Positions 22,334 to 48,360 of a stretch of DNA of 64,000 nt are shown here, piece after piece. Numbering within the stretch: the first letter of the stretch is position 1; the number at the start of each line of letters is the position of its first letter. The position numbers and the translations under genes are program-made. Source of the stretch: Patescibacteria group bacterium. Its GTDB lineage: Bacteria > Patescibacteriota > Patescibacteriia > SG8-24. The notes beneath the pieces are model-generated. The model was not told where the DNA came from and did no database searches. It worked only from the letters and a program-made list of their open reading frames with translations. The stretch lies in NCBI GenBank assembly GCA_041667185.1, contig JBAYFM010000002.1:23432-87431 (forward strand), in the 5' to 3' direction.

Positions 22334-22360
22334 ACTGGATGCTGAATGGCGCTCGGGATC

Positions 22361-22807: not shown

Positions 22808-22845
22808 GCAAGAACTATATCAAAAATATCTGTGTCGGGCACGGA

Positions 22846-22925: not shown

Positions 22926-23498
22926 CGAACCAAGAGTCTCTAAAGGATTGTCAGAAATCTCTTCTGCTGTAAAACGTTCATTTGATGCCAAAAAAAACAT
23001 CTGCAAATTTTTGGGTACAAATATCTTTTGTTTCGGCAACTTAATGTGGTGTCTGTAGAGATTGAGGGTCTCAGAAAACAAGTCGTCGAGTATCCTCAAA
23101 CTCCAGAGGCAATCAATGCTTAGTCCGCTCTCTCCAAAACGTGTTGAATCATAAATTTTTGTCAGTTCATTCAAAAAGTCTTTCTTTTGGGAGTCATCTA
23201 GTATCTTTTTGTACTCCGGAATATATGGAAGCGCCCTGCGCATCAACCCGACTAAATTATGTCCTCGCACAAAGTTATCGATATCCTTTCCCGTCGACTC
23301 TTTAATCTCCCTCCAATATATTCGAAGGGCTGCCTTAATACATGATTCCAAACATTGTTGTGCCAATAAACAACCTGTGTCGCAAAGACCCTCAATCAAA
23401 CCTACTCGTGCCAAAATATATGCCTCGCGAGCATTCCTGACTGCGAGCAAAAAAGCAAATATTTTTGTGTCCGGCCCATTCTTCAGTGGTTTTTCCAT
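22923..23498 (-). CDS. HEPN-like helical protein (putative; defense-island context)
   Basis: 191 aa, low GC. All-alpha composition with an R-x4-6-H-like motif (VRGHNLVGLMRRA). It sits directly upstream of the restriction endonuclease gene on the same strand. Confidence 0.4.
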   Translation of the reverse strand: MEKPLKNGPDTKIFAFLLAVRNAREAYILARVGLIEGLCDTGCLLAQQCLESCIKAALRIYWREIKESTGKDIDNFVRGHNLVGLMRRALPYIPEYKKILDDSQKKDFLNELTKIYDSTRFGESGLSIDCLWSLRILDDLFSETLNLYRHHIKLPKQKIFVPKNLQMFFLASNERFTAEEISDNPLETLGS

Positions 23499-23602
23499 AA
23501 CCGCCCCTTTTCTTTTCTAAATCATTGCTGGTATTACTTGAGCAATTCTTGGTCAACCGATGGTCAACCGGACCGGGAAATAACGCGGCTAGGATTTATA
23601 CG

Positions 23603-25012: not shown

Positions 25013-25081
25013 TGGCGAAGTTGATCTTCTGTCGATGACCGTCTATAATGATATGGCTATGTTCACCAGTAATACTCTCTT

Positions 25082-26497
25082 ATGATCAAGGGCAAGAAAA
25101 GCAACAAGATCCTCCGCGCAGCAGAATTATTCGCTGGTGTCGGCGGTTTCCGCATCGGACTCGACCGAGCGTCGTCCAGGAACAAACGGTTCGAGACTGT
25201 CTGGGCCAACCAGTGGGAGCCGTCGTCAGGCAAGATACAGCACGCGGCCTGGGTTTACGAACAAGCGTTCTTCAGGTCGCGAGACAAGACGGAGGCCGAG
25301 ATGAAGAAAGGATTCTCTAACATCGACATCAACAAGGTCGTGAACAGCGATGTGAGCATCGCCGACGACATTCCCCCGTTCGACCTGTTGACCGGCGGCT
25401 TTCCCTGCCAAGACTATTCGGTGGCTCGTCCACTCAGCCAGGCCGCCGGACTCAAGGGCAAAAAAGGTGTCCTCTGGTGGAGCATCTATGAAATCCTGCG
25501 GCACAGGATAGACTCTTCGAAGGAAGGGCCTGTCCCCTACCTGTTCCTGGAGAATGTCGACCGTCTCCTGAAATCTCCGGCATCGAATCGGGGGCGCGAT
25601 TTCGCCATCATGCTTTCGACATTGTCCGAACTCGGCTATGTGGTCGAGTGGCGTGTGATAAACGCTGGAGAGTACGGCCTGCCCCAACGCCGTCGTCGCA
25701 CTTACATAGTCGGCTACCACAAGACGACCAGGTTGGCCCAGGAGGCCAGAGCGGCCAAAAATCATCTTGAGTGGGTGCTGCGGAGCGGTGTCGTCGCCAA
25801 AGCCTTCCCGGTGGAGAAGACGTTCGTGCGCGGCGGATTCTTTGGCCTGTCGACCAGACCAGAGGACATCACGAAGCGCTTCGTCCCGCTGGACCCGGAG
25901 GTAGACGTGGATTTCTCCGCTCCATTCCAGAATGCCGGTCTGATGATTGAGGGACGGGTCCATACCGCCAAGACCTCGCCCGTCTTCCATGGCAAACCCC
26001 AGACCTTGGGTGACATCCTGCAACCAGAGGATACGGTTCCGAAGCAATTCTATATCCCTGCGTCAGAGGTAAAGAAATGGGAGCAGCAGAAGGCGGCGCA
26101 TCGATTCGAGAGGACTCACAAGGACGGGCATAAGTATCTGTACGTCGAAGGCAGGCTCCCCTTCCCTGATCCGTTGGATAAGCCCTCGCGCACGATCATA
26201 ACCAGCGAAGGAGGCCGGTCATCATCGCGGTTCAAACATGTCATCGGCGTGCGACAGCGCCCTGGATATCCCAAGGGCCGCACTATCGACGGACAGACTT
26301 ACCTGTACAGACGACTTACGCCGATAGAATTAGAGAGACTCTGCATGTTCGAAGATGACCACACCAGACTGATGTTCAATCCTCTCAAACAGGAGATCTC
26401 TGAGGTGCCGGATACGAAAAGAGCGTTCTTCATGGGGAACGCCCTCGTGGTCGGAGTCATCACCAAGATAGGCCGGGAACTACTTAAACGAGTCTGA
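25082..26497 (+). CDS. DNA (cytosine-5)-methyltransferase (Dcm-type; motif I FxGxG, motif IV PCQ, motif VI ENV)
   Basis: 471 aa. ELFAGVGGFRIGL (motif I), GGFPCQDYSVA (PC motif), LFLENVDRLL (ENV), and the C-terminal target-recognition/motif IX-X region (...FMGNALVVGVITKIG). Confidence 0.9.
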   Translation: MIKGKKSNKILRAAELFAGVGGFRIGLDRASSRNKRFETVWANQWEPSSGKIQHAAWVYEQAFFRSRDKTEAEMKKGFSNIDINKVVNSDVSIADDIPPFDLLTGGFPCQDYSVARPLSQAAGLKGKKGVLWWSIYEILRHRIDSSKEGPVPYLFLENVDRLLKSPASNRGRDFAIMLSTLSELGYVVEWRVINAGEYGLPQRRRRTYIVGYHKTTRLAQEARAAKNHLEWVLRSGVVAKAFPVEKTFVRGGFFGLSTRPEDITKRFVPLDPEVDVDFSAPFQNAGLMIEGRVHTAKTSPVFHGKPQTLGDILQPEDTVPKQFYIPASEVKKWEQQKAAHRFERTHKDGHKYLYVEGRLPFPDPLDKPSRTIITSEGGRSSSRFKHVIGVRQRPGYPKGRTIDGQTYLYRRLTPIELERLCMFEDDHTRLMFNPLKQEISEVPDTKRAFFMGNALVVGVITKIGRELLKRV

Positions 26498-26905
26498 ACT
26501 GTCGCGCAGCAGATCCAAGACCCTGAGCACCGCCCGCTCGGGGTCTTTTTTGATGTCATGCTCCCAAATTCTCAGCACCCGCCATCCGTGGCGTCGCAGA
26601 CCGGCCGTGTGACGCCGATCCCGTGCCCGATTCCGCTCGATCTTATCTCTCCAGAACTTCAGCCGAATCTTATGTTTCCATGCCGGGTAACGATACCCGT
26701 GCCAAAAATCTCCGTCGATGAATACTGCTATTTTATTTTTCGGCAAGGCGATGTCCGGAACCCCGAAAGCGGTGTGATAATGCCGCCGGAACCTGATACC
26801 GACTGCTGATAGTGCGCGAAACATGACCAGTTCCAACGAGGTATTTTTACCTCGAATCTTTGACATGATGATGCTCCGGACCTCTTTTGAAAACCTGTCT
26901 GGCAT
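26480..26905 (-). CDS. vsr: Very-short-patch repair endonuclease Vsr
   Basis: 141 aa. MPDRFSKEVRSIIMSKIRGKNTSLELVMFRALSAVGIRFRRHY...IAVFIDGDFWHGY...WRDKIERNRARDRRHTAGLRRHGWRVLRIWEHD is highly characteristic of Vsr. It overlaps the MTase 3' end convergently. Confidence 0.9.
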   Translation of the reverse strand: MPDRFSKEVRSIIMSKIRGKNTSLELVMFRALSAVGIRFRRHYHTAFGVPDIALPKNKIAVFIDGDFWHGYRYPAWKHKIRLKFWRDKIERNRARDRRHTAGLRRHGWRVLRIWEHDIKKDPERAVLRVLDLLRDSSDSFK

Positions 26906-26999
26906 CGGAGTAATGGTTCGAGACTAGGGCTCGAACCCATGAATCCTTAATTCTTGATCTGACCTATCGTCAGCGGAAACTTCGTCCGTCAGCACTCGT

Positions 27000-27078
27000 C
27001 AGTGTCAGTCAGTCTAAGTCAGAAGTGTACAATTCTTGGGCAACCCGTGGGCAACCGAATATATTGACTAATTTAATA
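27000..27078. repeat. Copy 2 of the ~80-bp direct repeat (pairs with 22846-22925)
   Basis: See copy 1. It carries a plus-strand sigma70-like TTGACT-17-TATCAT arrangement at its 3' end that copy 1 lacks. Confidence 0.7.
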
Positions 27079-27092
27079 TTCATTGATATCAT

Positions 27093-27824
27093 TTAGTCGT
27101 GCTCCGCAAGGGGTGCCCTGCCTGTGGATACAGGTCCGATGTCAAGACCCTCCCCGCCTAACGGCGCGTTGGGTCTTTTGATAATAGTTATATATTTTTT
27201 GATTCTTTGAGCGTTGATTGTAATATCGGCTTTGCGTTTGAATTCGATTCTAGTACTACTGCCGTGAATAAGAATCACGTTCTTTTTAGCTCGCTTCTTT
27301 ACGTGTTCGAGCAGCCCGCCGAAGTCATTATCGCTAGAAAATAAGCATAGAGTATCGAACTTGTCGGCCATCCTTGTAACATCGAGACAAAGTTCGACAT
27401 CGAAATTGCATTTTTGAATCACGATAAATCTATGTCCTTGATCATCGACTTCCGTCGTTCGTGATGTGGCTTTATCATCAGTTTGAATGTAATGGCGTAT
27501 CAGCTGGATGGGTTTTGTTATTGTCGACGAAAACTGATTCCTTGCCTTTTTAATGAGGTGGAGCGACGACGGCCTACTTTCGTCCAGGCCGTAATAGAAT
27601 AAACTTCGGGTCGAAAACCGATTTACGAATTCGCCCAGTCGATTGATGCTTACGACAATTTTTTCTTCCTCTCGTAAAGCTGCACCGGAATCATCGCGCC
27701 TATCTTTTTCGTACCAATAATTTACATTACCAAAATCAATGTACGTATAAATTCGACCCAGTTGGGTTAAATCAATGCGCAAGTCGTCTAAAATAATTTT
27801 AGTTTTTGCTTCATCAAGATTCAT
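27093..27824 (-). CDS. NYN-domain (PIN-like RNase fold) protein
   Basis: Start set at the Met that overlaps the upstream gene's stop (MNLDEAKTKII...); an earlier in-frame Met at 27863 is an alternative. NYN signatures YIDFGNVNYWY and CLFSSDNDFGGLLEHVKK, with acidic residues in VIQKCNFDVELCLDV. Low GC. Confidence 0.65.
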   Translation of the reverse strand: MNLDEAKTKIILDDLRIDLTQLGRIYTYIDFGNVNYWYEKDRRDDSGAALREEEKIVVSINRLGEFVNRFSTRSLFYYGLDESRPSSLHLIKKARNQFSSTITKPIQLIRHYIQTDDKATSRTTEVDDQGHRFIVIQKCNFDVELCLDVTRMADKFDTLCLFSSDNDFGGLLEHVKKRAKKNVILIHGSSTRIEFKRKADITINAQRIKKYITIIKRPNAPLGGEGLDIGPVSTGRAPLAEHD

Positions 27825-28339
27825 AACATCGGGCCCGACTTTTGGCTGATATGCTCGCTGCACCTAAATTCACCAAGTAATTTTAGATATTCCGACTGGC
27901 GACTAGTTTCTACCCACCCATCGGTTAATTTTCCGATGCGTTGCTCGCCGGCAATTACGCTGCACGGTGAGCAATAGAAAGCTTCGGGTGTTGCAACAAA
28001 TAACCAGGAGGGGTTCCAGCGATCGAGCAATTTGGATGCATGCGCGACTATTTGCTCAATATCAAATCGAGTCTGATATTTTACCTCGACAAGATACACT
28101 TCCTTTTTGTTACTCGAAATGAGGACAAAATCTGGGGCGTCCGAAATATTGTTTATTACTTGTTCAATCTCCACAAAATGCCGATACTGCGCCAACGTGG
28201 GCAGGGTGTGTTCGTACCCAAAAGGAATCACGGTATACCGGCCTTCCTTACGAATCATTTGCTCGAACAACACCTCGGCTATGCGACCCCGAATTAATTT
28301 GCGGGCGTAGGATATTTCGTCTGAAAATTTTTCGTCCAT
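27821..28339 (-). CDS. PD-(D/E)xK-like nuclease-fold protein (putative)
   Basis: 172 aa. APDFVLISSNKKEVYLVEVKYQTR gives D...E-V-K spacing typical of the PD-(D/E)xK core. Its stop overlaps the NYN gene start. Low GC. Confidence 0.5.
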   Translation of the reverse strand: MDEKFSDEISYARKLIRGRIAEVLFEQMIRKEGRYTVIPFGYEHTLPTLAQYRHFVEIEQVINNISDAPDFVLISSNKKEVYLVEVKYQTRFDIEQIVAHASKLLDRWNPSWLFVATPEAFYCSPCSVIAGEQRIGKLTDGWVETSRQSEYLKLLGEFRCSEHISQKSGPML

Positions 28340-28357
28340 AAATAGCTGTCAGCGCCC

Positions 28358-29311
28358 CTACATCGCTGGAGGCTCAATTTGTTTGGTCTCTGGCGTTTCA
28401 GCGGTATTTAGCGCATGAATCTTTTTGTAGTCAATCTGCAATTGCCCGCCCTGCTCTGTGGCATATGACGGTGGGTTTAGCGACAGGTGAAATTCGGCTC
28501 CGTCACCAAGTATTGCTACGAGGTCTTTGGTGGCGATAACAAGCTGAGTGTGCAGCTCGGCGTTTGCTCTCCCGTTTAGTTCCTTGATATCATTGATGAT
28601 ATTTTTAATGCGTTCTTTAAGTTCGAGATCTAACAGATTATCGATATATTTAATCAGCCCTTTTTCAGTGAATTCTTTTTCTTTTTCAAGTGCTGCCAGA
28701 CTGGCCTTATAATTTAACTCCGCACTTTTTGATTCATAATACGCCTTCTTTGTCTCCAAATACTTTATTGCGCCATCCAAACAGCCAAGAAAGTACTGAT
28801 AAGTTAAAGTACCGGCTGCTAATATTGCGTACCAATTGGTTCCTCGGTCAAAACCCGCAAATGTAAATTCGCCGTCGACGTTAAATTTTTTGAGAGTAGC
28901 GCCCAATTTAGTATTAAACGCGGTCAACTCGTCTAAGTTTGCTGTAGTTTTTGGTAAAAGTACGTTGATGATTTGCGCCGCTTGATCTTCAACAGCATCC
29001 GTAAGCATCGCATAAAATAGCGGGGCCGTTTTATTGAGCTGATCGACGTAGGATTTAAGGAACGAGAATTCGTCTTGCGGCAACAAAACTGGATTAGCGG
29101 CGGTTTTGTGAGCTTCAAGAACCTTCGCCACTGATTCACTTGGCAACTTATTCCATGACATTGATATAAACTTTTCGAGCGCAGTTGATATCTCAACAAA
29201 ATTTTCTACTTCAGAGGCTTGTCCGCCATATACGGCACGTGATTTGAGAGTAATCACGCCGACATCACTAACTACCTCTTTGATAATTTTTCGTAGTTCT
29301 CCTAATCGCAT
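28358..29311 (-). CDS. Hypothetical all-alpha protein, first gene of the three-gene low-GC cassette
   Basis: 317 aa, K/E/L-rich helical composition, no recognisable catalytic motif. 18-nt gap to the downstream PD-(D/E)xK-like gene. Confidence 0.55.
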   Translation of the reverse strand: MRLGELRKIIKEVVSDVGVITLKSRAVYGGQASEVENFVEISTALEKFISMSWNKLPSESVAKVLEAHKTAANPVLLPQDEFSFLKSYVDQLNKTAPLFYAMLTDAVEDQAAQIINVLLPKTTANLDELTAFNTKLGATLKKFNVDGEFTFAGFDRGTNWYAILAAGTLTYQYFLGCLDGAIKYLETKKAYYESKSAELNYKASLAALEKEKEFTEKGLIKYIDNLLDLELKERIKNIINDIKELNGRANAELHTQLVIATKDLVAILGDGAEFHLSLNPPSYATEQGGQLQIDYKKIHALNTAETPETKQIEPPAM

Positions 29312-29629
29312 ACAAGTTGCATTTATTTAATATTTTATGTAAGTTTAGCGCCATGAAGCTCATAATTCAAGAGCTAGAGCGCCGCTTTGACGCGATTAAA
29401 TTCAAACCGCGCGATTTTGAATTTTGATGGACTGAACGACTCCCCTCGCTCCGACTCGGGCCGGGGTTGGCGCGAGTCAATGAGCGCCAACGGGCGACAT
29501 GGGTCGCCCGGGGTCAGCCGAGGCCTTCATTACTTTGCCGAGGCTGACTGCGCACCGCCCCGCAATGTTGCGGGGCTCTCGCGTCCTTCTCGCCCCAGTT
29601 CCGCAGCTAAACAAAATTCGCCACGCCTC

Positions 29630-30394
29630 CTATTTCCGAGCCTCAACCTTCAGACTCTCCAACGGAATACCCTGATATTGCCGCTTACTGATGTCCTTGT
29701 CCTCGGATAAGATCTTCACTTTGAAACCTGCGCGAGCAATCTTCTTCAGATATTCGTCCCGGAGGACGGCCCCGCCGACGCAGCCCGCGATCAATTCTTC
29801 GTCCCCCCTCTGCTCAGCGGTCAAGTCCTCCAGAAGCACGATATCTGACAAATACATCCGGCCGCCGTCTTTCAGCACCCGCCAGGCCTCTTCAAACACT
29901 TTTGACTTGTCCGGGGCCAGATTGATGACGCAGTTGCTGATGATGACGTCGACCGAGCCGCTATCGACGGGTAGGTCCTCGATGTCGCCCAGCCTGAATT
30001 CGACGTTTTTGTAACCTTGCCTGTCGGCATTCATCCTGGCCTTGTCGATCATCTCCTGGGTCATGTCGACGCCTATGACCCGGCCGGTCCGGCCGACCTT
30101 CCTGGCGGCCAAAAAACAGTCGAAGCCGGCACCTGACCCAAGATCCAGAACAGTGTCGCCTTCCTTGATCTCGGCCATCCCCGTCGGGTTGCCGCAGCCC
30201 AGACCCAGATTGGACCCCGCCGCCGATCTGATCTCCGCAGCCGAATAACCGATGCTTTCGGCTATCCGTTCGTTTTCCCCGTCACCGCCACAACTACAGC
30301 TGCAACAACAGCCTTTACCGGCGATCTTGCTGTAGTGTTTTTTTACGATCTGCTTGACTGACTTGCCTGCGGTCATGTGAGTTGGGTCAAACAT
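29630..30394 (-). CDS. arsM: Arsenite S-adenosylmethionine methyltransferase ArsM (Cys-rich N-terminus)
   Basis: 254 aa. SAM motif [13 protein letters not shown], conserved ArsM cysteines ([12 protein letters not shown] and GLGCGNP), and IISNCVINL. Confidence 0.85.
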
Positions 30395-30852: not shown

Positions 30853-30927
30853 TGGCTCCGAGGCTGGGGCTCGAACCCAGAACAAATGGATTAACAGTCC
30901 ATTGCTCTACCATTGAGCTACCTCGGA
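30853..30927 (-). tRNA. tRNA-Asn (anticodon GTT), CCA encoded
   Basis: Manual fold of TCCGAGGTAGCTCAATGGTAGAGCAATGGACTGTTAATCCATTTGTTCTGGGTTCGAGCCCCAGCCTCGGAGCCA. 7-bp acceptor stem, D-arm GCTC/GAGC, anticodon stem ATGGA/TCCAT with loop CTGTTAA, T-arm CTGGG-TTCGAGC-CCCAG. Confidence 0.9.
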
Positions 30928-39847: not shown

Positions 39848-42800
39848 TTACAGCCGAAAGTCGGCCGAGACGTAATGCAGTTCGTCCATGATCGTGCCGG
39901 TCGCGGGCAGAATGTCGATTATGACCGCGCGGTTGCCGAAGAAGTTGTCGAGCGTATCGCCGACTTTGGTGAACAGTTTTTCACTAATCATCATCTCGGC
40001 CTCGCGGCTGCCGACGGCGACCGGTTGATAGGATTGTCCGCCGAGTTTCAGCGGCGCAAAGCTGTCAAAGCCGATCCGGTCAGCGAAGCTGTCGGGCAGG
40101 GTGCCGGCAGCGATCGGGTAGAAGACCTTGAGTTGGTTGCCGGCGACCGCGAAGCGGAGGTCCGCGACGGCGGTCAGCCGGGCGTAGGTCGCGGCATTCA
40201 GCAGATGGAACCTGTCGAGCAGAGTATCCGTCGGTTCCAGGATGCCAGCGACAGTGATCTGCGGCAGACCGAAGAAGTTCTTGACGACGTCGCCGGGTTT
40301 GGCGAACAGTTTTTCGGCAATCATCATCGCCGCCTCATCGGAGCCGATCAGCATCTCGTTGTCATTGAGAGCCGCGATACCTTGTTTGGCTTTGATGACC
40401 ACCGGGTCCACGGAGTCGATACCGACGAATAATTTCGGGCTGCCTTCAGAGAAACCGATTTTGGCTTTTTGTCTGGCCAGGTAGCTGATGACCGGCACAG
40501 CAGCTTTTAGAGTCGTTTCCGCCTTTGAGTCGACGTTCATGCCGACCGATACAGTGGTCTTGTCCTGGACCGCAGCCACCGCCGGCATCTTGGCCGGCGC
40601 CTCGCCCATCGCCGAACTGAACTGCGCGAACTTCAGGAACAGGAAGCCGAACACCAGCACCATGACTGCCGGAGCGGCCAAGGACAACCAGTTGCGCCGC
40701 CGCGGCCTGAAAGTCTTGAGCAGCAATGAATTGGAGACGACCGAGACCGAACTTAGGGCCATGGCCAGGCCCGCCAGTTCAGGTTTAAGGATCAGTCCGA
40801 GCGCGACGAAGACTCGCGCCGCGATCGGGATGCCGACGACGTTGTAGAACAGGGCAAAGAACATGTTCTGCCGGATCTTGCCCATGGTCTCCCGCGACAG
40901 CTCGATGGCCGTCACCACGTCGTTCAGATCGTTCTTCATGATGACGATACCGCCGGTCTCCATGGCGACGTCCGTGCCGCCGCCCATGGCGATGCCGAGG
41001 TCGGCCTGGGCCAGCGCCGGCGCGTCGTTTATGCCGTCGCCGACCATGGCGACCTTCTTGCCAGCCTCCTGTAGACGTTTCACTTCGCGCGCCTTATCCT
41101 CGGGCAGGACCTCCGCGAGCACCGAGGTGATGCCGACCTGCGAGGCGATGAACCGAGCCGTCCGCTCGTTGTCGCCGGTGATCATCCAGGTCTCGATGCC
41201 CATCTTCTGGAGCTTCTCCACGGCTGCATGCGAGGTCTCTTTCACCTTGTCGGCCACGGCCAAAGCCCCGACGACCCCCTTGACGTCGGCGAGCAGCATG
41301 ACCGTCTTGCCCTGGTCCTCCAGTCTGGCGATCTTGCGCTCGTACAGCGCGATGTCATGTCCGACGATCTCCGTCATCAGCTTGCGGTTGCCGAACCAGT
41401 AAGCAACGCCGGCGACCTTGGCCGTGACGCCGTGTCCGGGGATCGCTTTAAAATCACCCGCTTCTTCCGTTCCGTAAGCCTCCTCTTCGGCGTAGTTGCA
41501 GATGGCTTCGGCGAGCGGGTGTTCGGACAGCTTCTCGATGCTGGCCGCGATGCACACGACCTCGTCCGCCGGCAGACCTCCGAACGTCAGCACTTCGGTG
41601 ACCTCGGGTTTGCCCTTGGTCAGCGTGCCGGTCTTATCGAAGATGACGGCCTTGATCTTGCAGGCCGCCTCGAGCGGTTCGCCGCCCTTGATGAGAATGC
41701 CATGTTCCGCTCCCTTGCCGGTGCCGACCATGATGGCCGTAGGCGTGGCGAGTCCCAAAGCGCAGGGACAGGCGATGACGAGCACCGCCGTGAACGCCAT
41801 GAGCGCGAAGGACAGGCTGGCGCCCAGGAGCAGCCAGACCCCGAAGGTGACCGCGGCGATCACCAGCACGATGGGAACGAACCGGGCTGAGATGCGGTCG
41901 GCGAAGGCCTGGATCGGGGCCTTGGAGCCCTGGGCCTGTTCGATGAGCTGGATGATCTGCGCCAGAGCCGTTTCGGAACCGACGCGCGTGGCGCGGAACT
42001 CGAAACTGCCGTTCTTGTTGATCGTGGCGCCGATGACCTTGTCGCCGGCGCCCTTATCCACCGGCAAGCTCTCGCCGGTGATCATCGATTCGTCGACGGC
42101 CGAGGAACCGGAGACGATCTCGCCGTCCACCGGCACCTTCTCGCCGGGACGGACGATGACGATGTCGCCCTTCACGACCTGATCGGTCGGGATGTCGACC
42201 ATCGAGCTGCCGCGCTTGACTCGCGCCGTCTTGGCCTGCAGCCCCATGAGCCTTTTCAGCGCCTCCGAGGTCTTGCTCTTGGTGCGCGTCTCGAGCCATT
42301 TGCCCAGCATGACGAAGGTGATGAGGAACGCCGACGTCTCGAAGTAGAGTTCCGGTATCTTCGCGCCGCCGAGGCCGATCAGGCTGTTGTTGGCTAGGGC
42401 GTAGAGGACGAAGTTGACGACGCTGTAGACGAAGGCTGTCGTCGTGCCGATGGCGATGAGGCTGTCCATGTTGAATGTCCTCATCTTCAGGCTGGACCAC
42501 ATGCCGCGGTAGAAGCCTGCACCGATGACGAACTGGACCGGCGCCGCGAGGACGAACGATACGAGCCCGGCCCATGGCCACAGGAGGGCGCGTCCGGGCA
42601 CCCAAGCAAAGAAGTCGAAGAGCATGAACCAGAGCATCGGCAGGCTCAAGACCAGGCCAACCAGGAACCGGTTGCGGTAAGAGGCGGTTTCGGCCGCTCG
42701 CCGGCGGCGTTCTTCTTCGGGATCGGTCTTGTCAGCAACCTGGGCGCGGTAGCCGGTCTTCCGGATGCGCTCGACCAGGGCGTTGACGTCCGTCATCTGC

Positions 42801-43561
42801 CCGTCAAAGACAACGTGCGCCTTTTCGGCCGCGAAGTTGACGTAGGCTTCCTTGACCCCCTTTTCATTCCGTAAGCTCCGTTCGATGAGGCCGGCGCAGG
42901 ACGAGCAGTGCATCCCGCTGATCGTGAAAGTCGTCCGGCGCTCGCCCGCGGCCTCTTCCGGCCGCTGAACCGGCGCTTCTTGAAGTTCGCGGCTCTTTGA
43001 AGCCGGTTCAACGATGGTGTGGCCGGGATCGCCGTCCAAAAGCAGGCCGGAATGAAGCACCCGCGCCAGGCTTTCGACCAATTTTTCGAGTTCGGGAGCG
43101 CCTTTAGGGTATTCGATCGCGCTCTGCCGCCGCGCAGTGATCTTGCCGGAGAAATACGGGCGGCCGGCATCATCGCCGCGCACTTCGCCCTCGGCTTCGG
43201 TCACGGTCTCGTAACTGAGTTTCAATCTGGCACCCCGGCTGACTTCGTCCGCCTCCGCGCGCTGGTCCGCCGGACTTTCCGGTCGAACCGCGGCGACCGC
43301 CGGATCGGGAACAACAACCAGTGGCGCTGCGGCGACCGCTACGCCCGCAGTCATGCTCTCCGAGACGATGCCGTACCCAAGATCCTTGATAGCGGCCTTG
43401 ATGGCCGTGGTCGACGTCCCCTCGTTGGCTTCGACGCGACACTCGCCAGTGGACGCGTCGACACTGACGCCGCGAACCCCGGCCAAGCCGCTCAACGCCT
43501 CGCGGATCAGGGTCTCGCAGGAGCTGCAGTGCAGGCCGCTGAGTTTGAGATCAATGGTCAT
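39848..43561 (-). CDS. copA: Copper-translocating P1B-type ATPase CopA with two N-terminal HMA domains and an unusual ~310-aa C-terminal extension (extra TM plus two tandem repeats)
   Basis: 1237 aa continuous [14 protein letters not shown] and [11 protein letters not shown] (HMA x2), TGES, CPC in TM6 ([13 protein letters not shown]), [17 protein letters not shown]. After the last canonical TM (...[10 protein letters not shown]) the protein continues with a further hydrophobic helix and two ~45-aa repeats ([43 protein letters not shown] and [43 protein letters not shown]). Confidence 0.9.
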
Positions 43562-43565
43562 ATCT

Positions 43566-43775
43566 TTAAGCCTCGCGGACCTGATAACCCTTCTCCGCGA
43601 GTTTGGCGCGGATGTCTGCGAGGGCGACCGGCTGTCCGGCGGTGACCTTGATCAGGCCGCTGGACTCGTCGGTCAACACCTGTATGACCCCGCTCATTTT
43701 CATGAGAAGCAGGTTGATCATTTTGGAGCAGGCCGAGCATTTAATGTTGGTGACGGTGAATTGCTGTTGATACAT
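43566..43775 (-). CDS. copZ: Copper chaperone CopZ (single HMA domain)
   Basis: Start at [17 protein letters not shown] (M-x-C-x-x-C). 70-aa ferredoxin-like HMA fold ending ...[12 protein letters not shown]. Confidence 0.7.
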
Positions 43776-43800
43776 ATGGATATTAGATTCATCGAGGCCA

Positions 43801-45552
43801 TTATTCGACATGGATCGTGGCCCGCCACATGCCCATGGCGCAGGTGACGTCGTAGTCGCCGGGTTCGGTCGGAATGAACTCGATGACCGTCGGGTCGGGA
43901 TAATTTTCGCGGACGCCGATGCCGAGATCCCGATTCACGAAAGCGACCATGCAGCCGGCGGGCGGCGCGTCCGGCGTGATAGTCCACTCGACCGGCTGGC
44001 CGGCCTTGACGGTGAATTCGTTCGGGGACAGGCCGTAATTATCGCGCGCGTCGATCCGCTGCACCCCGGCGTCGGTTTTGACCGAACCGGTGACCGGAGC
44101 CTTGGGCTGTGCGCCACCGCCGCAGCCGCAGCCGCCTCCGCCGCAGGAACTGCCCGAAACGGGCGGCGGCGCCGGTGACACAGCCGTCGGACCGGCCGCC
44201 GTCGCACCGTTCGAGGCCCCGTCCGTGACATTGAAGACGCCCCGATACATGCCCATGCTGCAGGAGAACGGGATGTCGCCGGCGCTGGTCGGCGTGAATT
44301 CGATGATGTTCTCCCCCTTCCTCAGCTGCCGGGAGATCTTGAACGCCGGCATCGAGATCGAGGCCGCGCAGGATAGTTCAGTTTCCGAAGTGATGATCCA
44401 CCTGACCGGCACGCCTTTCCGGACCGAAAAAACGTTGGGCGCGTAGCCGCCGGCCTTCTGGGTCATGCGCACGGTCTGGACCCCGTTCTGTTCGGTCGCG
44501 GCGGTCGCGGGTCGTTTCAGCTGCGCCGCGGCAGGATCGAAACCGGCGAGCGCCAGGCCATTGCCGAAATTGAGCACTCCGAAGATCAGCACGGCGAGAC
44601 CGACGACCGCGTAGAACAACTTGGCCGCGGCCCCTTTGATGACCGAGGTCAGTCCGCCGATGCCGAGCAGGGCCGGCGCGGTACCCAGCGCGAATAGAGC
44701 CATCACCGCGCCGCCGCGCCAGAAACTGCCGGTGCTGACGGCGTAGAGCTGCGTGGCCTGAGTGAAGCCGCAGGGCAGGAAGAAGGTCAGGGCCCCGGTG
44801 ACCAGCGCCGATGAATGGCTGTACTCCTTGTTGTGGTGGTTCAGACCGAGTCGGCGGCCGATCCAGGAAGGCAGCATCGGTCCGCCCTCCTTGAGCCGTG
44901 GCGACAGGCCGGACAATTTCAGCCCCATGACGATCATGACGGCGCCGACCGCCAAAGTCAGGACCGACAGCAGGCCGTTCGAGAGCTTGAAGACGCTGCC
45001 GGCCGCCCCGAGCAGGCCGCCGAAGAAGGCGTAGCCGGACACGCGTCCCGCGTTGAAGTAGAGGTGCGGCCGGAATTTCTCCCAGGCGGTGGCTTCCGGA
45101 TGACTTTCGGCGTGGCTCGCGGACAGTCCCAGGATGAGGCCGCCGACCAGAGCCATGCAGGTGGAGATGCCAGCGATAAGACCCACGACCAGAGCCATGG
45201 CCAGAGAGACGTTCTTCGTGTCGACGCTGAATCCCAGGGACCCCAGGGCGCGAACGGCGAAATAGAGTACGCCGACGATCAGGACAGCCTTGCCTATATT
45301 GCGGTAATCCTCGTGGTTGTCGGAAATCCAGGGCAACGGTCCGGAACTACCGATCTCATAACCGCTTTCCTTGACCGCCCGGATGATTTCCTCACGGCTC
45401 GGTATGTCGGCGCCATGACGGATCGATGCCTCGCCTTTCCGATAATCGACTTTGACATGATCGACCCCCTGAACTTGCCCAATCTTATCCTCGAGCAACA
45501 GTTCGCAGGAGCGACAATGCATTCCTTTAATTGGTATAACAAAATGCTTCAT
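43801..45552 (-). CDS. HMA-domain membrane protein of the TauE/SafE / DsbD-TM type, with two C-terminal cupredoxin-like Cys-x-MGM(Y/W)R domains separated by a Cys/Gly-rich linker
   Basis: N-terminal HMA (GMHCRSCELLLED), then ~8 TM helices containing a conserved Cys pair region (GISTCMALVGGLILG ... FFLPCGFTQATQ). The C-terminus carries two repeats ending FSCSMGMYRGVFNV and VTCAMGMWRATIHV, separated by GSSCGGGGCGCGGG. Confidence 0.65.
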   Translation of the reverse strand: MKHFVIPIKGMHCRSCELLLEDKIGQVQGVDHVKVDYRKGEASIRHGADIPSREEIIRAVKESGYEIGSSGPLPWISDNHEDYRNIGKAVLIVGVLYFAVRALGSLGFSVDTKNVSLAMALVVGLIAGISTCMALVGGLILGLSASHAESHPEATAWEKFRPHLYFNAGRVSGYAFFGGLLGAAGSVFKLSNGLLSVLTLAVGAVMIVMGLKLSGLSPRLKEGGPMLPSWIGRRLGLNHHNKEYSHSSALVTGALTFFLPCGFTQATQLYAVSTGSFWRGGAVMALFALGTAPALLGIGGLTSVIKGAAAKLFYAVVGLAVLIFGVLNFGNGLALAGFDPAAAQLKRPATAATEQNGVQTVRMTQKAGGYAPNVFSVRKGVPVRWIITSETELSCAASISMPAFKISRQLRKGENIIEFTPTSAGDIPFSCSMGMYRGVFNVTDGASNGATAAGPTAVSPAPPPVSGSSCGGGGCGCGGGAQPKAPVTGSVKTDAGVQRIDARDNYGLSPNEFTVKAGQPVEWTITPDAPPAGCMVAFVNRDLGIGVRENYPDPTVIEFIPTEPGDYDVTCAMGMWRATIHVE

Positions 45553-45597: not shown

Positions 45598-46053
45598 CTA
45601 TTCGTTCTTGATGGTCGTGCCGGTGAGCTTCGGAGCGCGATCAAAATGAACTTTTTGGCCGGAAGGATCGGACTCGTTGCTCAAAAGCGACGCTGGCGGG
45701 GACGCGGCCGCGGCGGCAGGAGGCGGGGTGATCGTAAAGGTCCCGCCGGACCGTGACTCGACGTTCGCGTAACCGGTCATATTGTGGCCGTCGGAGTCGC
45801 CGCCCATCGGACATTCCGAAGCCGGCGGATACTGCGATCCGACCATGATTGCGCTTGCCGCATCCGGTACCATCGGAACGTCGACGGACGCGTCCGAAGC
45901 AACCGCTTCATCCGCGCATTCATCGACCGCCGGTAACGAATGATCTTCGGCGGCGAAAGCTATCGGGCCCATCGTCGGGCAGACTAAACAATTGCCGCCC
46001 AGGATGACGGCGGCCGCGACGAACTTCAGCGCTAGTCGATGACTGGAGGACAC
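45598..46053 (-). CDS. Hypothetical secreted protein (possible GTG start, signal peptide) within the cop operon
   Basis: The track ORF overlaps csoR by 62 nt. An in-frame GTG at 46053 yields MSSSHRLALKFVAAAVILGGNCLVCPTMGPIAFA|AEDH... . The mature part has Met/His/Cys/Asp residues (PMVPDAASAIMVGS...ECPMGGDSDGHNMTG) compatible with metal binding. Confidence 0.35.
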   Translation of the reverse strand: MSSSHRLALKFVAAAVILGGNCLVCPTMGPIAFAAEDHSLPAVDECADEAVASDASVDVPMVPDAASAIMVGSQYPPASECPMGGDSDGHNMTGYANVESRSGGTFTITPPPAAAAASPPASLLSNESDPSGQKVHFDRAPKLTGTTIKNE

Positions 46054-46057
46054 AGGA

Positions 46058-46333
46058 TCATTTCTTGCGCCAAACGTTGCAGACGCGCAATATTTCCTTG
46101 ATGAACCGGTCGCGTTCACCCTTGCTCTTCGACGCCAAGGCGACGCCGCACGTGCGAAGATGACTTTCGAGGATCAGGTTGTTGGCCTGCTGCAGGATGC
46201 CGATCACGGCGTTGTTCTGCTGGATGATGTCCATGCAATAACGATCGGCTTCCGCCATCTTAATGACGGTGTCCAGCTGGCCGCTGGCTTTTTGCAGGCC
46301 TTTTTTCACCTGACCGGCGTATGGTTCGATCAT
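46058..46333 (-). CDS. csoR: CsoR/RcnR-family metal-sensing transcriptional repressor (copper-sensitive operon repressor)
   Basis: 91 aa. The DUF156 helical bundle with the conserved C-H-C ligand set (RYCMDIIQQNNAVIGIL...ESHLRTCG). Confidence 0.8.
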   Translation of the reverse strand: MIEPYAGQVKKGLQKASGQLDTVIKMAEADRYCMDIIQQNNAVIGILQQANNLILESHLRTCGVALASKSKGERDRFIKEILRVCNVWRKK

Positions 46334-46359: not shown

Positions 46360-46383
46360 ATACCCCAACCTATGGTATAGGTT
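46360..46383. promoter_or_regulatory. Candidate CsoR operator: inverted repeat ATACC-N9-GGTAT overlapping the perfect palindrome AACCTATGGTATAGGTT
   Basis: Located 27-50 nt upstream of the csoR start codon (minus strand). The ATACCCCAACCTATGGTAT symmetry resembles known CsoR operators of the TACCC...GGGTA type. Confidence 0.4.
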
Positions 46384-46891: not shown

Positions 46892-46979
46892 TGGCGGAGG
46901 GGGAGGGATTCGAACCCTCGATACCTTGCGGTATACTCGCTTTCCAAGCGAGCGCACTCGACCACTATGCGACCCCTCC
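46892..46979 (-). tRNA. tRNA-Ser (anticodon GGA), long variable arm, CCA encoded
   Basis: Manual fold of GGAGGGGTCGCATAGTGGTCGAGTGCGCTCGCTTGGAAAGCGAGTATACCGCAAGGTATCGAGGGTTCGAATCCCTCCCCCTCCGCCA. Acceptor GGAGGGG/CCCCTCC, anticodon stem CTCGC/GCGAG with loop TTGGAAA, 16-nt variable arm, T-arm GAGGG-TTCGAAT-CCCTC. Confidence 0.85.
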
Positions 46980-47089: not shown

Positions 47090-47563
47090 TTAAGGTCCGT
47101 GCCGCAGGAACAGCACGCCGACCGCGAACAGATACAAGATATAAGTCGTAGTCAGGGCGGCGATCCAATTCTGGCTGACCGGCTGCTTCGAGCGTTGATT
47201 GGCCGAAACGAACAGCGCCAGACAACCGCCGATGAGACCAGCATCACGGACAGTCGCGTCGCTGACGCCGGCGAACAGACAGATGAGGATCAGGTAGATG
47301 GCCGCAGCCGCCGCGATGACCCGCGGCCTCCGTCCGGACAGGAAAAAGAAACCCATGGCCAACTCCAGGGAACCGATGCTGAACATGACCAGACTCGGAC
47401 CAAGCAGGGTGATCGGCCAGATCCACAGATCGAACCAGGCCTGCCAGGCTCCGGGATGAACCCACTTGTCCAGGCCGAACCACAGAAAGACGCTACCGAC
47501 GGCAAAACGCAATATCGTCACCAGGAAATCTTCTTTGTAGCGGCGAAACGGAAAGATGTTCAT
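47090..47563 (-). CDS. DoxX-family membrane protein
   Basis: 157 aa. TILRFAVGSVFLWFGLDKW matches the DoxX N-terminal signature. Four TM helices. Confidence 0.6.
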   Translation of the reverse strand: MNIFPFRRYKEDFLVTILRFAVGSVFLWFGLDKWVHPGAWQAWFDLWIWPITLLGPSLVMFSIGSLELAMGFFFLSGRRPRVIAAAAAIYLILICLFAGVSDATVRDAGLIGGCLALFVSANQRSKQPVSQNWIAALTTTYILYLFAVGVLFLRHGP

Positions 47564-48360
47564 GTGCGTGAAGATGCGGCCGCGGCTTCAGGAGCCGCGA
47601 TCCCGATCCGCGGCAAGACCCGTCTCAGTGCGATGACGCCGCTGACGCAGGCTGCCAGGGACAGATATTGGGCGGGTGTCAGGAACCAGAGACGCGCGTC
47701 GGACTGCGGCAGATCCCAGACGCGCAGAAAATCCAAGCCGAACCGCGTGGCGCCGTAGATCGCCAGATACCAGAACAGCCACGGCTCCGCTGATCCGGAT
47801 CGCGAGCGGCTGCGCGCCAGGAAAAACAGGAAGATCCCGAGATTCAGGAGCGCCAGCAGCAACCCGTGGTCGAGGCGACCGCCGCCGGGATAAGCCACGG
47901 CCAGGAACGACGCCGAGCGGATCCCGGGATGGTCGTGGATCAGGAAGCAGCCGATCCGGCCGATCGCGCAGCCGAGCGGCAGAGCGAAAGCGATCAGATG
48001 GGCGTAAGGCAGGAACGCGACCCGGTGCCGGCGGCAGTACCACCAGCCGGCCAGGGCGCCGCCAAGGAAGCCGCCGTAGATCGACATGCCGCCCTGCCAA
48101 ACGCGGACCGCCAGCAGCGGATCAGCGAACCAAGCCAACGGATCGTAAGCGAGCAGATAAAGCAGCCGCCCGCCGAGCAGTCCGCCGAGCAGCATCCAGG
48201 CGGCGAGGTCGAGCGCGAAACCGCGGTCCAATTTATAGCGACCGGCCAAACGATAGATCAGAGCCAGCGCCGCGGCGATGCCGGCGGCCACGAACAAGCC
48301 CCAGACCTGGATGGTCAGCGGGCCGACGGCAAAATTAGTTCGATCAAAATACGGGATCAT
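47560..48360 (-). CDS. lgt: Prolipoprotein diacylglyceryl transferase Lgt
   Basis: 266 aa. The Lgt signature region GGMSIYGGFLGGALAGWWYCRR and the conserved LGCAIGRIGCFLIHDHPG are present. Confidence 0.9.
   Translation of the reverse strand: MIPYFDRTNFAVGPLTIQVWGLFVAAGIAAALALIYRLAGRYKLDRGFALDLAAWMLLGGLLGGRLLYLLAYDPLAWFADPLLAVRVWQGGMSIYGGFLGGALAGWWYCRRHRVAFLPYAHLIAFALPLGCAIGRIGCFLIHDHPGIRSASFLAVAYPGGGRLDHGLLLALLNLGIFLFFLARSRSRSGSAEPWLFWYLAIYGATRFGLDFLRVWDLPQSDARLWFLTPAQYLSLAACVSGVIALRRVLPRIGIAAPEAAAASSRT

Follow-up and report, generated by a model that had tools for sequence, protein, structure and literature searches.

The gene at 43801–45552 on the minus strand of the analysed stretch of DNA (64,000 nucleotides from a Patescibacteria group bacterium; hereafter the window) very probably encodes a membrane-integrated copper protein of the cop system, whose HMA domain is cytoplasmic and whose CupA-type Cu(I) sites face the exterior. 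The open reading frame begins with ATG, and its 583-aa product consists of an HMA domain, an additional transmembrane helix (TM0), a DsbD_2 core of six transmembrane (TM) helices, a first CupA-like domain, a Cys/Gly linker, and a second CupA-like domain. The protein has more than 4900 homologues, its AF2 model has a mean pLDDT of 82, and all eleven of its cysteines are located within conserved motifs. Its domain identities, the conservation of its ligands, its predicted topology, and the conservation of its operon have been established, and the protein presumably binds copper. The new feature is that, by sequence and structure comparison, the C-terminal domains are homologues of CupA and of the CopA MBD with the full set of Cu(I) ligands.

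Domain architecture and predicted topology

A Pfam search of the protein returned HMA, DsbD_2, and two Cupredoxin_1 domains, in agreement with the HMA domain and the pair of cupredoxin-like C-terminal domains proposed by an initial annotation. The HMA domain (residues 1–70; 45343–45552, minus strand) is supported by Pfam (PF00403 at residues 6–66; E=1.3e-10, 42 bits relative to a cut-off of 24.8), by the AF2 model, and by conservation. Its metal-binding motif is G10-M11-H12-C13-R14-S15-C16, in which H12, C13, S15, and C16 are invariant among 92 sequences, and AF2 predicts the beta-alpha-beta-beta-alpha fold (strands at 2–9, 30–36, and 41–46; helices at 15–25 and 53–62). Essentially all family members have this domain, and the HMA-bearing N-terminus of the target is without a signal peptide. 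It is followed by TM0 (residues 80–102; 45247–45315, minus strand), which is seen as a helix in the AF2 model and in hydropathy, with a best 19-residue mean of 1.86 across 92 homologues.

The membrane core (residues 117–335; 44548–45204, minus strand) was delimited from Pfam, invariant columns, and AF2. It was initially described as TauE/DsbD-like with several Cys pairs, of which the DsbD part is borne out: PF13386 (DsbD_2) matches residues 120–327 with E=1.3e-32 (113.7 bits relative to a cut-off of 24.9), spans model positions 2–199 of 199, and is the sole Pfam family that matches the core at E<=10. TauE/SafE identity (PF01925) was rejected, as no Pfam TauE match to the core was found at that threshold, and no NCBIfam model covers the core. 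Likewise, the conserved cysteines form a single pair, C132 in TM1 and C261 in TM4, rather than several. Both are present in 92/92 sequences, within the invariant motifs S-T-C132-M133 and L-P-C261-G-F-T-Q, and their sites coincide with helix breaks in the AF2 model (128–131 and 258–262). The Met residues that accompany the membrane cysteines (C132-M133 and M267) are invariant or near-invariant, as are His151 and His163 (invariant) and His246 (near-invariant), which are in segments that were placed on the cytoplasmic face. In a sister subfamily, TM1 carries H-C-x-x-M-C and TM4 carries M-P-C-G-P.

Links between this core and thiol-redox proteins were found in several relatives. Two of these, P0179 and P0198, have weak Pfam matches to DsbD_TM (25.9 and 27.8 bits, respectively, relative to a cut-off of 27.1). 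A third, P0226, is composed of HMA, DsbD_2, Cupredoxin_1, ScsC_N, and DsbA with a C-S-Y-C active site; this ScsC fusion is one of ten variant architectures examined. No thioredoxin-fold domain is present in the target protein or in the 64-kb window. A search of the family profile against PDB sequences (E<=10) returned HMA and cupredoxin chains only and no CcdA or DsbD chain, and the core modelled on its own in AF2 (pLDDT 76, which makes it weak evidence) gave no Foldseek match in the PDB better than E=0.55. As there is no link to a solved structure, a CcdA-like reading of the core rests on Pfam clan membership and the weak DsbD_TM matches.

The two C-terminal domains, CupA-like domain 1 (residues 350–443; 44224–44505, minus strand) and domain 2 (residues 490–583; 43804–44085, minus strand), are matched by Cupredoxin_1 in two stretches (E=5e-14, 52.5 bits relative to a cut-off of 27). 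Domain 1 was assigned from phmmer, Foldseek, and conservation, and domain 2 from phmmer and the duplication. The motifs quoted in the initial annotation are located at residues 429–438 (FSCSMGMYRG), 569–578 (VTCAMGMWRA), and 469–480 (SCGGGGCGCGGG). In phmmer searches, domain 1 matches CupA (2mry/4f2e, E=1e-11) and the Streptococcus pneumoniae CopA MBD (4f2f, E=2.6e-7), while domain 2 matches 4f2f (E=1.5e-4) and CupA (E=3e-3). The model of domain 1 superimposes on 4f2e with a TMt of 0.91 and an rmsd of 1.6 A, and the structural match to the CopA MBD (4f2f) has a TMt of 0.88 and an rmsd of 1.4 A (Foldseek). The repeats are therefore homologues of a structurally solved Cu(I) chaperone, which connects them to metal binding. 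In both domains, Cys...Cys-x-Met-x-Met aligns with all four Cu(I) ligands of CupA, such that the Cys and Met-Gly-Met residues initially singled out as candidate Cu(I) ligands are part of a complete set in each domain (C395, C431, M433, and M435; C534, C571, M573, and M575). The four in domain 1 are invariant among 92 sequences. In domain 2, C534, C571, and M573 are kept in 78/78 two-domain rows of the alignment, with position 575 occupied by M in 36, V in 33, and I in 9. The domains share 34% identity (E=2e-15) with their Cys and C-x-M-x-M columns aligned, and on sequence they are a real internal duplication. By homology to CupA, each has a candidate Cu(I)-binding site.

A blue-copper electron carrier such as plastocyanin or azurin (ligands His, Cys, His, Met) was also considered for these domains. 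This was rejected because the loops C-S-M-G-M-Y-R-G and C-A-M-G-M-W-R-A contain no His and because the best-scoring relatives are CupA and the CopA MBD, which are Cu(I) chaperones. C395 and C534 align with the upstream CupA ligand C74, and plastocyanin is matched with only E=0.96.

The domains are joined by a disordered, extracytoplasmic linker (residues 444–489; 44086–44223, minus strand; pLDDT about 30 over residues 447–482 in AF2) that contains the motif S-C470-GGGG-C475-G-C477-GGG (44113–44148). These cysteines are present in 75/92 (C470), 74/92 (C475), and 60/92 (C477) sequences. Distant subfamilies have similar Cys/Gly segments as linkers or as C-terminal tails.

AF2 and hydropathy predict seven TM helices, namely TM0 and the six of the DsbD_2 core. 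K+R residues are enriched in segments predicted to be inside, as in the positive-inside rule, and the C-terminal ScsC/DsbA domain of P0226 is attached without an intervening TM helix. On these grounds (the seven helices, the hydropathy, the K+R bias, and P0226), the HMA domain is predicted to be cytoplasmic and the CupA-like domains to be extracellular, with TM0 predicted to bring the chain from inside to outside ahead of the DsbD_2 core. The CupA-like domains would thus be on the side of the membrane opposite to that of CupA. Because the HMA and cupredoxin domains are predicted to lie on opposite sides of the membrane, a trans-membrane relay is geometrically possible.

Operon context and distribution of the family

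The gene order given by the initial annotation, with the target between csoR and copZ-copA, is correct, although an additional ORF of about 150 aa (45598–46050, minus strand) separates csoR from the target. All of these genes are on the minus strand. The first is csoR (46058–46333; Pfam Trns_repr_metal, E=2.7e-17), and 3' of the target are genes for a CopZ-like HMA protein of 81 aa with a C-S-A-C motif (43566–43811) and for CopA, a Cu(I) P1B-type ATPase of 1237 aa (39848–43561). The CopZ-like ORF, whose start overlaps the target stop by 11 nt, has weak Pfam and NCBIfam matches (HMA with E=3.9e-4, which is below the cut-off, and CopZ-type models at about 1e-5). CopA has Pfam E1-E2_ATPase and Hydrolase matches and two HMA domains, is matched by NCBIfam TIGR01511 (E=1e-186), and has a C-terminal extension of about 277 aa after an extra hydrophobic segment. 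No PDB sequence or Pfam match to this extension was found; it may resemble a MacB periplasmic domain. The small ORF encodes an N-terminal hydrophobic segment with GGNCLVC and then a low-complexity region with ECPMGGDSDGH. It has no Pfam or NCBIfam match but is homologous to a 145-aa gene at the equivalent position in an Uhrbacteria genome (E=1e-6), and positional equivalents with CC or C..C motifs are present in at least 10 loci.

Just upstream of csoR, an inverted repeat that resembles a CsoR box, ATACC-N9-GGTAT, was read from the sequence (46360–46378, minus strand). A strict regular expression for the canonical box had no match in the window, in which only this looser repeat occurs; canonical TACCC-N5..-GGGTA boxes are 5' of csoR in 10/34 related loci, and the S. 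aureus copX operator is ATACCctggGTGGGTAT (PMC10233261). The repeat may function as a CsoR box, and the locus is best explained as a CsoR-controlled operon of csoR, a small secreted Cys-rich protein, the target, copZ, and copA.

The gene neighbourhood is conserved among related loci. For instance, copA is directly 3' of the target in 68/80 loci and csoR is 5' of it in 34/80, while a separate copZ-like gene was detected by tblastn in only 10/80, and a CopA extracytoplasmic C-terminal extension is present in 18/80. DsbA-like genes are within 8 kb in 11/81 loci (a raw count) and directly adjoin the operon in four of them (L012, L029, L030, and L051). No cuproenzyme gene is linked to the target in the loci inspected. 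As a side observation, cop operons of the CPR type have several extra extracytoplasmic Cys-rich parts (the small secreted protein, the CopA extension, and DsbA-like and DUF411 neighbours).

The family was found in at least 592 species genomes and 1016 clusters at 50% identity. The 80 best matches are mostly CPR. A one-domain form of about 445 aa predominates in the family, and the target is the two-domain variant. In the uncultured Patescibacteria (CPR), the family is a regular member of copper-resistance operons. The initial statement that the protein is not a standard cop component therefore holds for model organisms but not for Patescibacteria, given the number of species genomes and the frequency of copA downstream. 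The name 'sulfite exporter TauE/SafE' under which the family is listed in databases (NCBI and JGI) is misleading.

Proposed copper relay and alternative functions

The favoured mechanism, held tentatively and at slightly less than even confidence, is a thiolate/thioether relay in which Cu(I) would pass from the HMA domain to the membrane Cys pair and then to the external CupA-like sites. That copper traverses the core, and that it does so in the outward direction, is presumed. In such a relay, the C13-x-x-C16 site would take up cytosolic Cu(I), which would then move to a soft-ligand site in the DsbD_2 core made up of C132-M133 in TM1 and of C261 and M267 in TM4. The core would be a carrier of the LysE superfamily, possibly driven by the proton motive force, and would release Cu(I) at its outer face to the sites C395/C431/M433/M435 and C534/C571/M573/M575, with the flexible linker and its three cysteines as an intermediate arm. 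The external domains would retain Cu(I) on the cell surface, where it is kept from re-entering, and might additionally take over Cu(I) expelled by CopA. That the core is a previously unrecognised ATP-independent copper transporter, fused to cytosolic HMA and extracellular CupA-type sites, is conceivable but somewhat doubtful.

Several observations count for the relay. Both of the modules that flank the core (HMA and CupA-like) are copper-chaperone folds, and in all characterised cases known to us (P1B-ATPases, MerA, MerTP, and CCS) a fused HMA domain binds the metal of its partner. His, Cys, and Met are soft-metal ligands. The Met residues beside the membrane cysteines and the motifs of the sister subfamily argue in the same direction, as do the three His residues in cytoplasmic-side segments and the location of every cysteine in a conserved motif. 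The synteny with copA and csoR and the CsoR-like box upstream are further support, and members of the LysE superfamily, which includes DsbD, are largely metal or amino-acid exporters (PMC4608589).

Other observations count against the relay. The arrangement of single cysteines in TM1 and TM4 is also the hallmark of CcdA/DsbD electron transfer, and two relatives match DsbD_TM weakly. The ScsC/DsbA domain of P0226 and the DsbA-like neighbours speak for thiol redox. If passive, a Cu(I) conduit would be bidirectional and risky under external copper stress, so energy coupling must be assumed. ATP-driven export and a CopZ are already provided by the operon, and the TM core is without a detectable solved structural relative. 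The main rival, a serious possibility if not a probable one, is a reductant conduit similar to ScsB or CcdA, in which the core carries reducing equivalents outward and keeps external copper-binding thiols reduced. The reduced cysteines of the CupA-like domains and linker could then capture the Cu(I) that CopA exports, or reduce Cu(II) and thereby trap it, and the HMA domain would be outside the trans-membrane path as a membrane-tethered CopZ for CopA or as a Cu(I)-sensing switch. This is consistent with the Pfam assignment of the core to DsbD_2, the contact of P0179 and P0198 with DsbD_TM, the lone Cys at each of the TM1 and TM4 helix breaks, the ScsC_N and DsbA domains of P0226 with their C-S-Y-C active site, and the DsbA-like genes near 11/81 loci. 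Additionally, the Cys pair of CupA reduces Cu(II) in vitro, with its re-reductant unknown (PMC5646241), and ScsB, a member of the DsbD family whose tandem Ig-like domains bear Cys residues, binds Cu+ like ScsC and gives it to CueP (PMC10907172). The scarcity of separate copZ-like genes also suggests that the fused HMA domain could be the CopZ of the operon. However, HMA is near-universal in the family, whereas DsbD-type cores are usually fed by an unfused thioredoxin, and most members, including the target, have no thioredoxin-fold partner domain. To our knowledge, CcdA/DsbD proteins have no counterpart of the Met that adjoins the membrane Cys, of the HCxxMC variants, or of the conserved His residues in the loops, which also argues against a reductant conduit. 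Moreover, the ScsC fusion is found in just one of ten variant architectures, ScsC itself binds Cu(I), and the DsbA-like gene count is without a proper genomic background.

Two further explanations are improbable. In one, the protein is a two-faced CopA accessory whose HMA domain feeds CopA inside and whose CupA-like domains accept Cu(I) from CopA outside or just sequester external Cu(I), a role proposed for S. aureus CopL, with the core as a passive anchor. The tight copA synteny and the importance of membrane tethering to CupA function (PMC5646241) are in line with this, as is CopL, a surface copper-binding lipoprotein of a CsoR-controlled operon with a suggested role in uptake block (PMC10233261), and the C-terminal extension of CopA (18/80 loci) could be a docking site. 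Yet about 46 columns are invariant, among them those of C132-M133, P260-C261-G-F-T-Q, and the loop His residues, which is more than an anchor requires, and CupA is anchored by just one helix. Less probable still is copper uptake (similar to CopCD/YcnJ, or to MerP-MerT in mirror image), with external capture and inward passage of Cu(I) via the Cys pair to the HMA domain. The geometry of a relay has no intrinsic direction, and MerP/MerT and CopC/CopD are precedents for uptake by an outside binder and a membrane protein. YcnJ has been described as a putative importer (PMC8424229). However, the target shares an operon with the exporter gene copA behind a CsoR-type repressor and should thus be induced by copper excess, and linkage to cuproenzyme genes is absent in the loci inspected.

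Comparison with known systems and implications

Cupredoxin Cu(I) chaperones of the CupA type bind a binuclear Cu(I) cluster. The target domains are similar to CupA and the CopA MBD of S. pneumoniae (4f2e/2mry and 4f2f, respectively) in cupredoxin fold, in sequence, and in the four ligands, which in CupA are C74/C111/M113/M115 (PMC5646241). The spacing between the cysteines is about equal (36–37 residues), and the CupA gene likewise adjoins copA within a cop operon. Nevertheless, CupA is a chaperone anchored by a single helix and described as acting on the cytoplasmic side, while the target domains are C-terminal to seven TM helices, are predicted to be outside, and occur as two tandem copies joined by a linker with three cysteines. 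Unlike S. pneumoniae CopA, the partner CopA has two HMA domains and no cupredoxin MBD, and the regulator is CsoR rather than CopY. CupA has been described as a protein of only a few streptococci (PMC5646241, PMC7558416), whereas the target family is present in hundreds of CPR species.

The target core belongs to the same Pfam clan as DsbD, CcdA, and ScsB, with 3+3 helices and one seemingly essential Cys in each of TM1 and TM4, and these systems also have extracytoplasmic beta-sandwich domains with Cys pairs. ScsB-ScsC-CueP is a copper resistance system of Salmonella, in which CueP receives Cu+ from ScsB and ScsC, both of which bind it (PMC10907172). The target differs from DsbD/CcdA in its extra TM0, its fused cytoplasmic HMA domain, its lack of a thioredoxin-fold gamma domain, and its Cys-Met in TM1 in place of a Pro-Cys context; unlike in DsbD/CcdA/ScsB, its soluble domains are C-terminal and CupA-type, and it has no sequence or structural match to solved CcdA or DsbD. 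With MerP-MerT and MerTP, it may share a common logic, in which metal is relayed among HMA, two cysteines in the membrane, and a soluble site with Cys on the far side. The HMA domain weakly matches the NCBIfam MerTP fusion model (E=1.6e-9, far below the cut-off), but the membrane domain of the Mer relay is non-homologous to the target core. In the target, HMA faces the cytoplasm and the second binder the exterior, the direction is likely outward, and the metal is copper by operon context. CopL of S. aureus (copBL/copXL) is similarly a surface-exposed, membrane-attached copper binder of a CsoR-controlled operon with a Cu-ATPase, and is suggested to prevent copper (re)uptake (PMC10233261); it is, however, a lipoprotein of unrelated fold, without a membrane core or HMA domain.

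No functional study of any family member was found in the literature, where such genes have appeared in listings without analysis (PMC4938975, PMC8756737). COG2836-type proteins of Firmicutes, which have the same HMA+DsbD_2 backbone with DUF2318 instead of CupA-like domains in some, were computationally assigned to a CsoR meta-regulon (PMC4938975), and in a Chloroflexi MAG, a DsbD_2+cupredoxin 'hypothetical protein' is listed with copZ on one side, a Cu-ATPase on the other, and a csoR-like gene nearby (PMC8756737). Neither report proposes a CupA relationship, a topology, or a mechanism.

Overall, the fold and ligand set of CupA, so far studied only in S. pneumoniae, are those of a widespread domain that extends beyond a few streptococci. 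Here, a polytopic membrane protein is predicted to display this domain on the outside of the cell, in a lineage with very small genomes that holds a large share of bacterial diversity, and the TauE/SafE name on thousands of entries hides a conserved copper-resistance component. A single membrane-spanning chain that carries three thiol-based modules raises the questions of whether Cu(I) can pass through a two-Cys core of the CcdA/DsbD type and of what re-reduces CupA-type cysteines. If the relay is correct, the two-Cys CcdA/DsbD scaffold would have been re-used for a metal ion instead of electrons, and the resulting mirror image of the Mer relay would be a core copper defence of most Patescibacteria.

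Domain architecture and CupA-type repeats

The open reading frame at 43801..45552 (minus strand, ATG start) encodes a protein of 583 aa whose translation contains all three motifs quoted in the initial annotation: FSCSMGMYRG (residues 429-438), VTCAMGMWRA (residues 569-578), and SCGGGGCGCGGG (residues 469-480). A domain search returned matches exceeding the Pfam curated cut-offs for each expected component, namely HMA (residues 6-66, E=1.3e-10), DsbD_2 (residues 120-327, E=1.3e-32, matched over the full length of the model), and Cupredoxin_1 in two stretches (E=5e-14). The core had also been described as TauE-like, but membership of the TauE family was rejected because DsbD_2 was the sole Pfam family for the core even at E<=10. 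C-terminal domains 1 (residues 350-443) and 2 (residues 490-583) share 34% identity (E=2e-15) with their Cys and C-x-M-x-M columns aligned; therefore, the repeat noticed initially is real.

Against PDB sequences, the whole protein matched Streptococcus pneumoniae CupA (2mry/4f2e, E=2.9e-11), the CopA metal-binding domain (MBD) of the same species (4f2f, E=9e-7), and many HMA domains. Domain 1 alone matched CupA at E=1e-11 and 4f2f at E=2.6e-7, and domain 2 alone at E=3e-3 and E=1.5e-4, respectively; these matches to a Cu(I) chaperone speak against repeats unrelated to metal binding. CupA binds two Cu(I) ions, the high-affinity one on C74 and C111 and the second through C74, M113, and M115 (PMC5646241). 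Its SPC and FAC-G-M-N-M stretches align with ELSC395 and FSC431-S-M433-G-M435 of domain 1, and with PAGC534 and VTC571-A-M573-G-M575 of domain 2, at nearly equal Cys-Cys spacing. The complete ligand set is therefore kept in both domains; the C-x-MGM(Y/W)R repeats are candidate Cu(I)-ligand domains, as suggested, and are homologous to CupA. With 92 homologues as input, AlphaFold2 gave a model (mean pLDDT 82) whose best PDB match was 4f2e (TM 0.91 on the target, rmsd 1.6 Å, 32% identity), with a further match to 4f2f (TM 0.88). A classical blue-copper site or cupredoxin electron carrier was rejected, as His is absent from both ligand loops.

Conserved residues and predicted topology

Residues invariant among the 92 homologues are H12, C13, S15, and C16 in the HMA domain; S130, C132, and M133 in TM1; H151, P152, P162, and H163 in the TM1-TM2 segment; P260, C261, G262, F263, T264, Q265, and Q268 in TM4; and C395, C431, M433, M435, Y436, and G438 in domain 1. 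M267 is kept in 91 of 92 sequences. The target has exactly 11 Cys, all within conserved motifs. Several conserved membrane Cys pairs had been anticipated, but the membrane part has a single pair, with TM1 and TM4 contributing one conserved Cys each. All 78 two-domain rows keep C534, C571, and M573, and position 575 is M (36), V (33), or I (9); the low-affinity site is therefore degenerate in many second domains but intact in the target. Most two-domain members carry a Cys/Gly segment, (S/T)-C-G-x-G-G-G-C-G-(G)-C-G-G-G, which some one-domain members and distant subfamilies have as a tail at the C-terminus (the related protein P0179 ends in ...GGGGCCGG) and which is thus a functional element rather than a mere spacer. 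The linker (residues 447-482) is disordered in the AlphaFold2 model.

The model contains seven long helices (80-102, 117-150, 156-185, 192-214, 246-274, 277-302, and 308-335), with C132 and C261 sitting exactly at breaks in the second and fifth. In the 92 homologues, each of the seven is hydrophobic, and TM0 has a best 19-residue Kyte-Doolittle mean of 1.86. Lys and Arg are enriched in the predicted inside segments (5.1 per sequence in the 3-4 loop, with more clusters where TM2 and TM6 begin), and the three predicted outside loops have only 0-0.5 per sequence. The target has no signal peptide and its HMA domain begins at residue 2; given the odd number of helices, the CupA-like domains should therefore be outside. 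Helix number, Lys/Arg distribution, and the absent signal peptide thus agree on the cytoplasmic HMA domain predicted initially. In the relative P0226, a CupA-like domain is followed by ScsC_N and a DsbA-like thioredoxin domain with C-S-Y-C, with no hydrophobic segment between. To our knowledge, this thioredoxin domain type is always extracytoplasmic, and the fusion would independently back the outside location. According to reviews, CupA is confined to a few streptococci, and it is described as a chaperone tethered to the membrane that supplies the cytoplasmic MBD of CopA (PMC5646241, PMC7558416). Fold and ligands are common to both proteins, whereas membrane side (predicted to be opposite), anchor, and partner MBD differ.

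Operon context and distribution

The gene was reported to lie between csoR and copZ-copA. These are all on the minus strand, with csoR at 46058-46333, a CopZ-like HMA ORF at 43566-43811 that overlaps the target stop by 11 nt, and copA (1237 aa) at 39848-43561, but a further small ORF (45598-46050, minus, ~150 aa) separates csoR from the target. Its likely start is a GTG immediately after the csoR stop, and GGNCLVC lies in the hydrophobic N-terminus of its product, ahead of a low-complexity stretch containing VDEC and ECPMGGDSDGH. It had no match in Pfam or NCBIfam and is homologous (E=1e-6) to a called 145-aa gene at the equivalent position in an Uhrbacteria genome (L081), where the order is as in the window: csoR, 145-aa ORF, target homologue, HMA, copA, and then DUF411. 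In at least 10 related loci the position is taken by a fast-evolving equivalent whose CC or C..C motifs have Met/His on either side, and the ORF may encode a secreted copper-binding protein of the Patescibacteria (CPR) cop operon. The DUF411 (CopG-like, CxCC) gene following copA is at 12223-12570 in L081 and at 13945-14298 in another related locus, L024. An inverted repeat, ATACC-N9-GGTAT (46360-46378), ~25-45 nt upstream of the csoR start, adjoins the sole sigma-70-like promoter match of the region and is probably the CsoR operator; canonical TACCC...GGGTA boxes precede csoR in 10 of 34 related loci.

CopA has a ~277-aa C-terminal extension (residues ~960-1237; 39848-40690, minus) that follows an extra hydrophobic segment and is therefore probably extracytoplasmic. 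It contains two internal repeats and zero Cys, had no match to Pfam or PDB sequences, has a similar counterpart in 18 of 80 related loci, and may serve for docking or for Cu(I) handover at the outer face. An unusually long ~135-aa linker (residues ~70-205; 42950-43350, minus), rich in Ala, Glu, and Arg, separates the two N-terminal HMA domains and was found by tblastn in only 7 of 80 related loci. Immediately upstream of the operon is tRNA-Ser(GGA) (46892-46979, minus), and beyond it a DoxX-family membrane protein gene and lgt (47090-48360, minus). Elsewhere, 22001-30000 has a G+C content of 0.47-0.54 versus ~0.60, with tRNA-Asn (30853-30927) at its edge, and may be an acquired island.

At E<=1e-5, the target matches more than 4900 clusters (90% identity), of which the named ones come from Uhrbacteria, Kerfeldbacteria, Magasanikbacteria, Falkowbacteria, and 'Patescibacteria group'. 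At E<=1e-30, 1016 clusters matched in a 50%-identity representative library, most of ~445 aa (the one-domain form). The distribution of the fusion was also examined using one genome per GTDB species, giving at least 592 encoding loci. Among the best 80 of these, Patescibacteria are the majority of those carrying specific labels (Parcubacteria, Microgenomates, Saccharibacteria, WWE3, Berkelbacteria, and Gracilibacteria); ~20 'TPA_asm' bins are labelled, as deposited, Gammaproteobacteria, Pseudomonadales, Bdellovibrionales, or Cytophagia, and single loci Bacillota, Lentisphaerae, Udaeobacter, or Methanosarcinales. The gene could be extracted from 77 of these 80 loci, and the one-domain form is the commoner (~50 genes, with two domains in ~25). 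A more distant subfamily, one member of which comes from an uncultured archaeon, has as many as three CupA-like domains, and its TM1 and TM4 motifs are H-C-x-x-M-C and M-P-C-G-P-L-Q, respectively. copA directly follows the gene, on the same strand, in 68 of the 80 loci, and csoR directly precedes it in 34. Thus, for CPR, the gene is a regular cop operon member rather than a peculiarity of one genome; the initial view of it as non-standard holds for model organisms.

Proposed copper relay and alternative roles

The mechanism favoured here, with slightly less than even confidence, is a Cu(I) relay. Cu(I) would pass from the HMA domain to C132/M133/C261/M267 of the membrane core and then, with the three-Cys arm helping, to the external CupA-like sites, finally to be kept at the surface or released. 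Several features favour this: both soluble ends are Cu(I)-chaperone folds; the membrane Cys occur together with Met, and in a sister subfamily with His; and conserved His occupy segments that were placed on the cytoplasmic side. In the characterised cases known to us (P1B-ATPases, MerA, MerTP, and CCS), a fused HMA domain binds its partner's substrate metal. Additionally, the LysE superfamily, DsbD included, consists mostly of metal and amino-acid exporters (PMC4608589). Of the transmembrane relay first envisaged, the placement of HMA inside and CupA-like sites outside is supported by prediction, but copper passage is a proposal only.

Alternatively, and with a somewhat lower but still substantial probability, the core could carry reductant, in which case the HMA domain would act as a sensor or as a tethered CopZ. 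The target core bears the CcdA/DsbD signature of a single Cys in each of TM1 and TM4. The DsbD_TM profile is touched by two relatives, a ScsC/DsbA domain is fused in P0226 (720 aa), and 11 of 81 loci have DsbA-like genes no more than 8 kb from the gene, with DsbA/ScsC-like genes adjoining the operon in four (L012, L029, L030, and L051); the window has no DsbA/ScsC-like thioredoxin-fold gene. In vitro, Cu(II) is reduced by the Cys pair of CupA, which needs a reductant in turn (PMC5646241). Salmonella offers a parallel in ScsB, a DsbD-family protein with tandem Ig-like Cys-bearing domains, and its partner ScsC, both of which bind Cu+ and hand it to CueP (PMC10907172). Relay and reductant transfer both fit the anatomy of the protein; the analysis established the identity of the domains, conservation of the ligands, a predicted topology, and synteny, and any movement of copper or electrons is proposed. 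Strong conservation of the core, and co-transcription of the gene with an exporter behind CsoR, make a passive anchor improbable and copper uptake more so.

The clusters are named 'sulfite exporter TauE/SafE family protein' in the database and 'sulfite exporter TauE/SafE/plastocyanin domain-containing protein/copper chaperone CopZ' by JGI. This is not a well-known annotated family: the 'TauE/SafE' name lacks Pfam TauE support, and no functional study of the family was found in the literature. For a Chloroflexi MAG, an appendix table places a hypothetical protein described as 'DsbD 2 ... cupredoxin superfamily' between copZ and a Cu-ATPase (PMC8756737). The target is best filed as a new combination of three known kinds, an HMA domain, a DsbD_2 core, and CupA-type domains, and its family is widespread, uncharacterised, and misannotated. 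If the core does carry Cu(I), the significance of this family would be raised.
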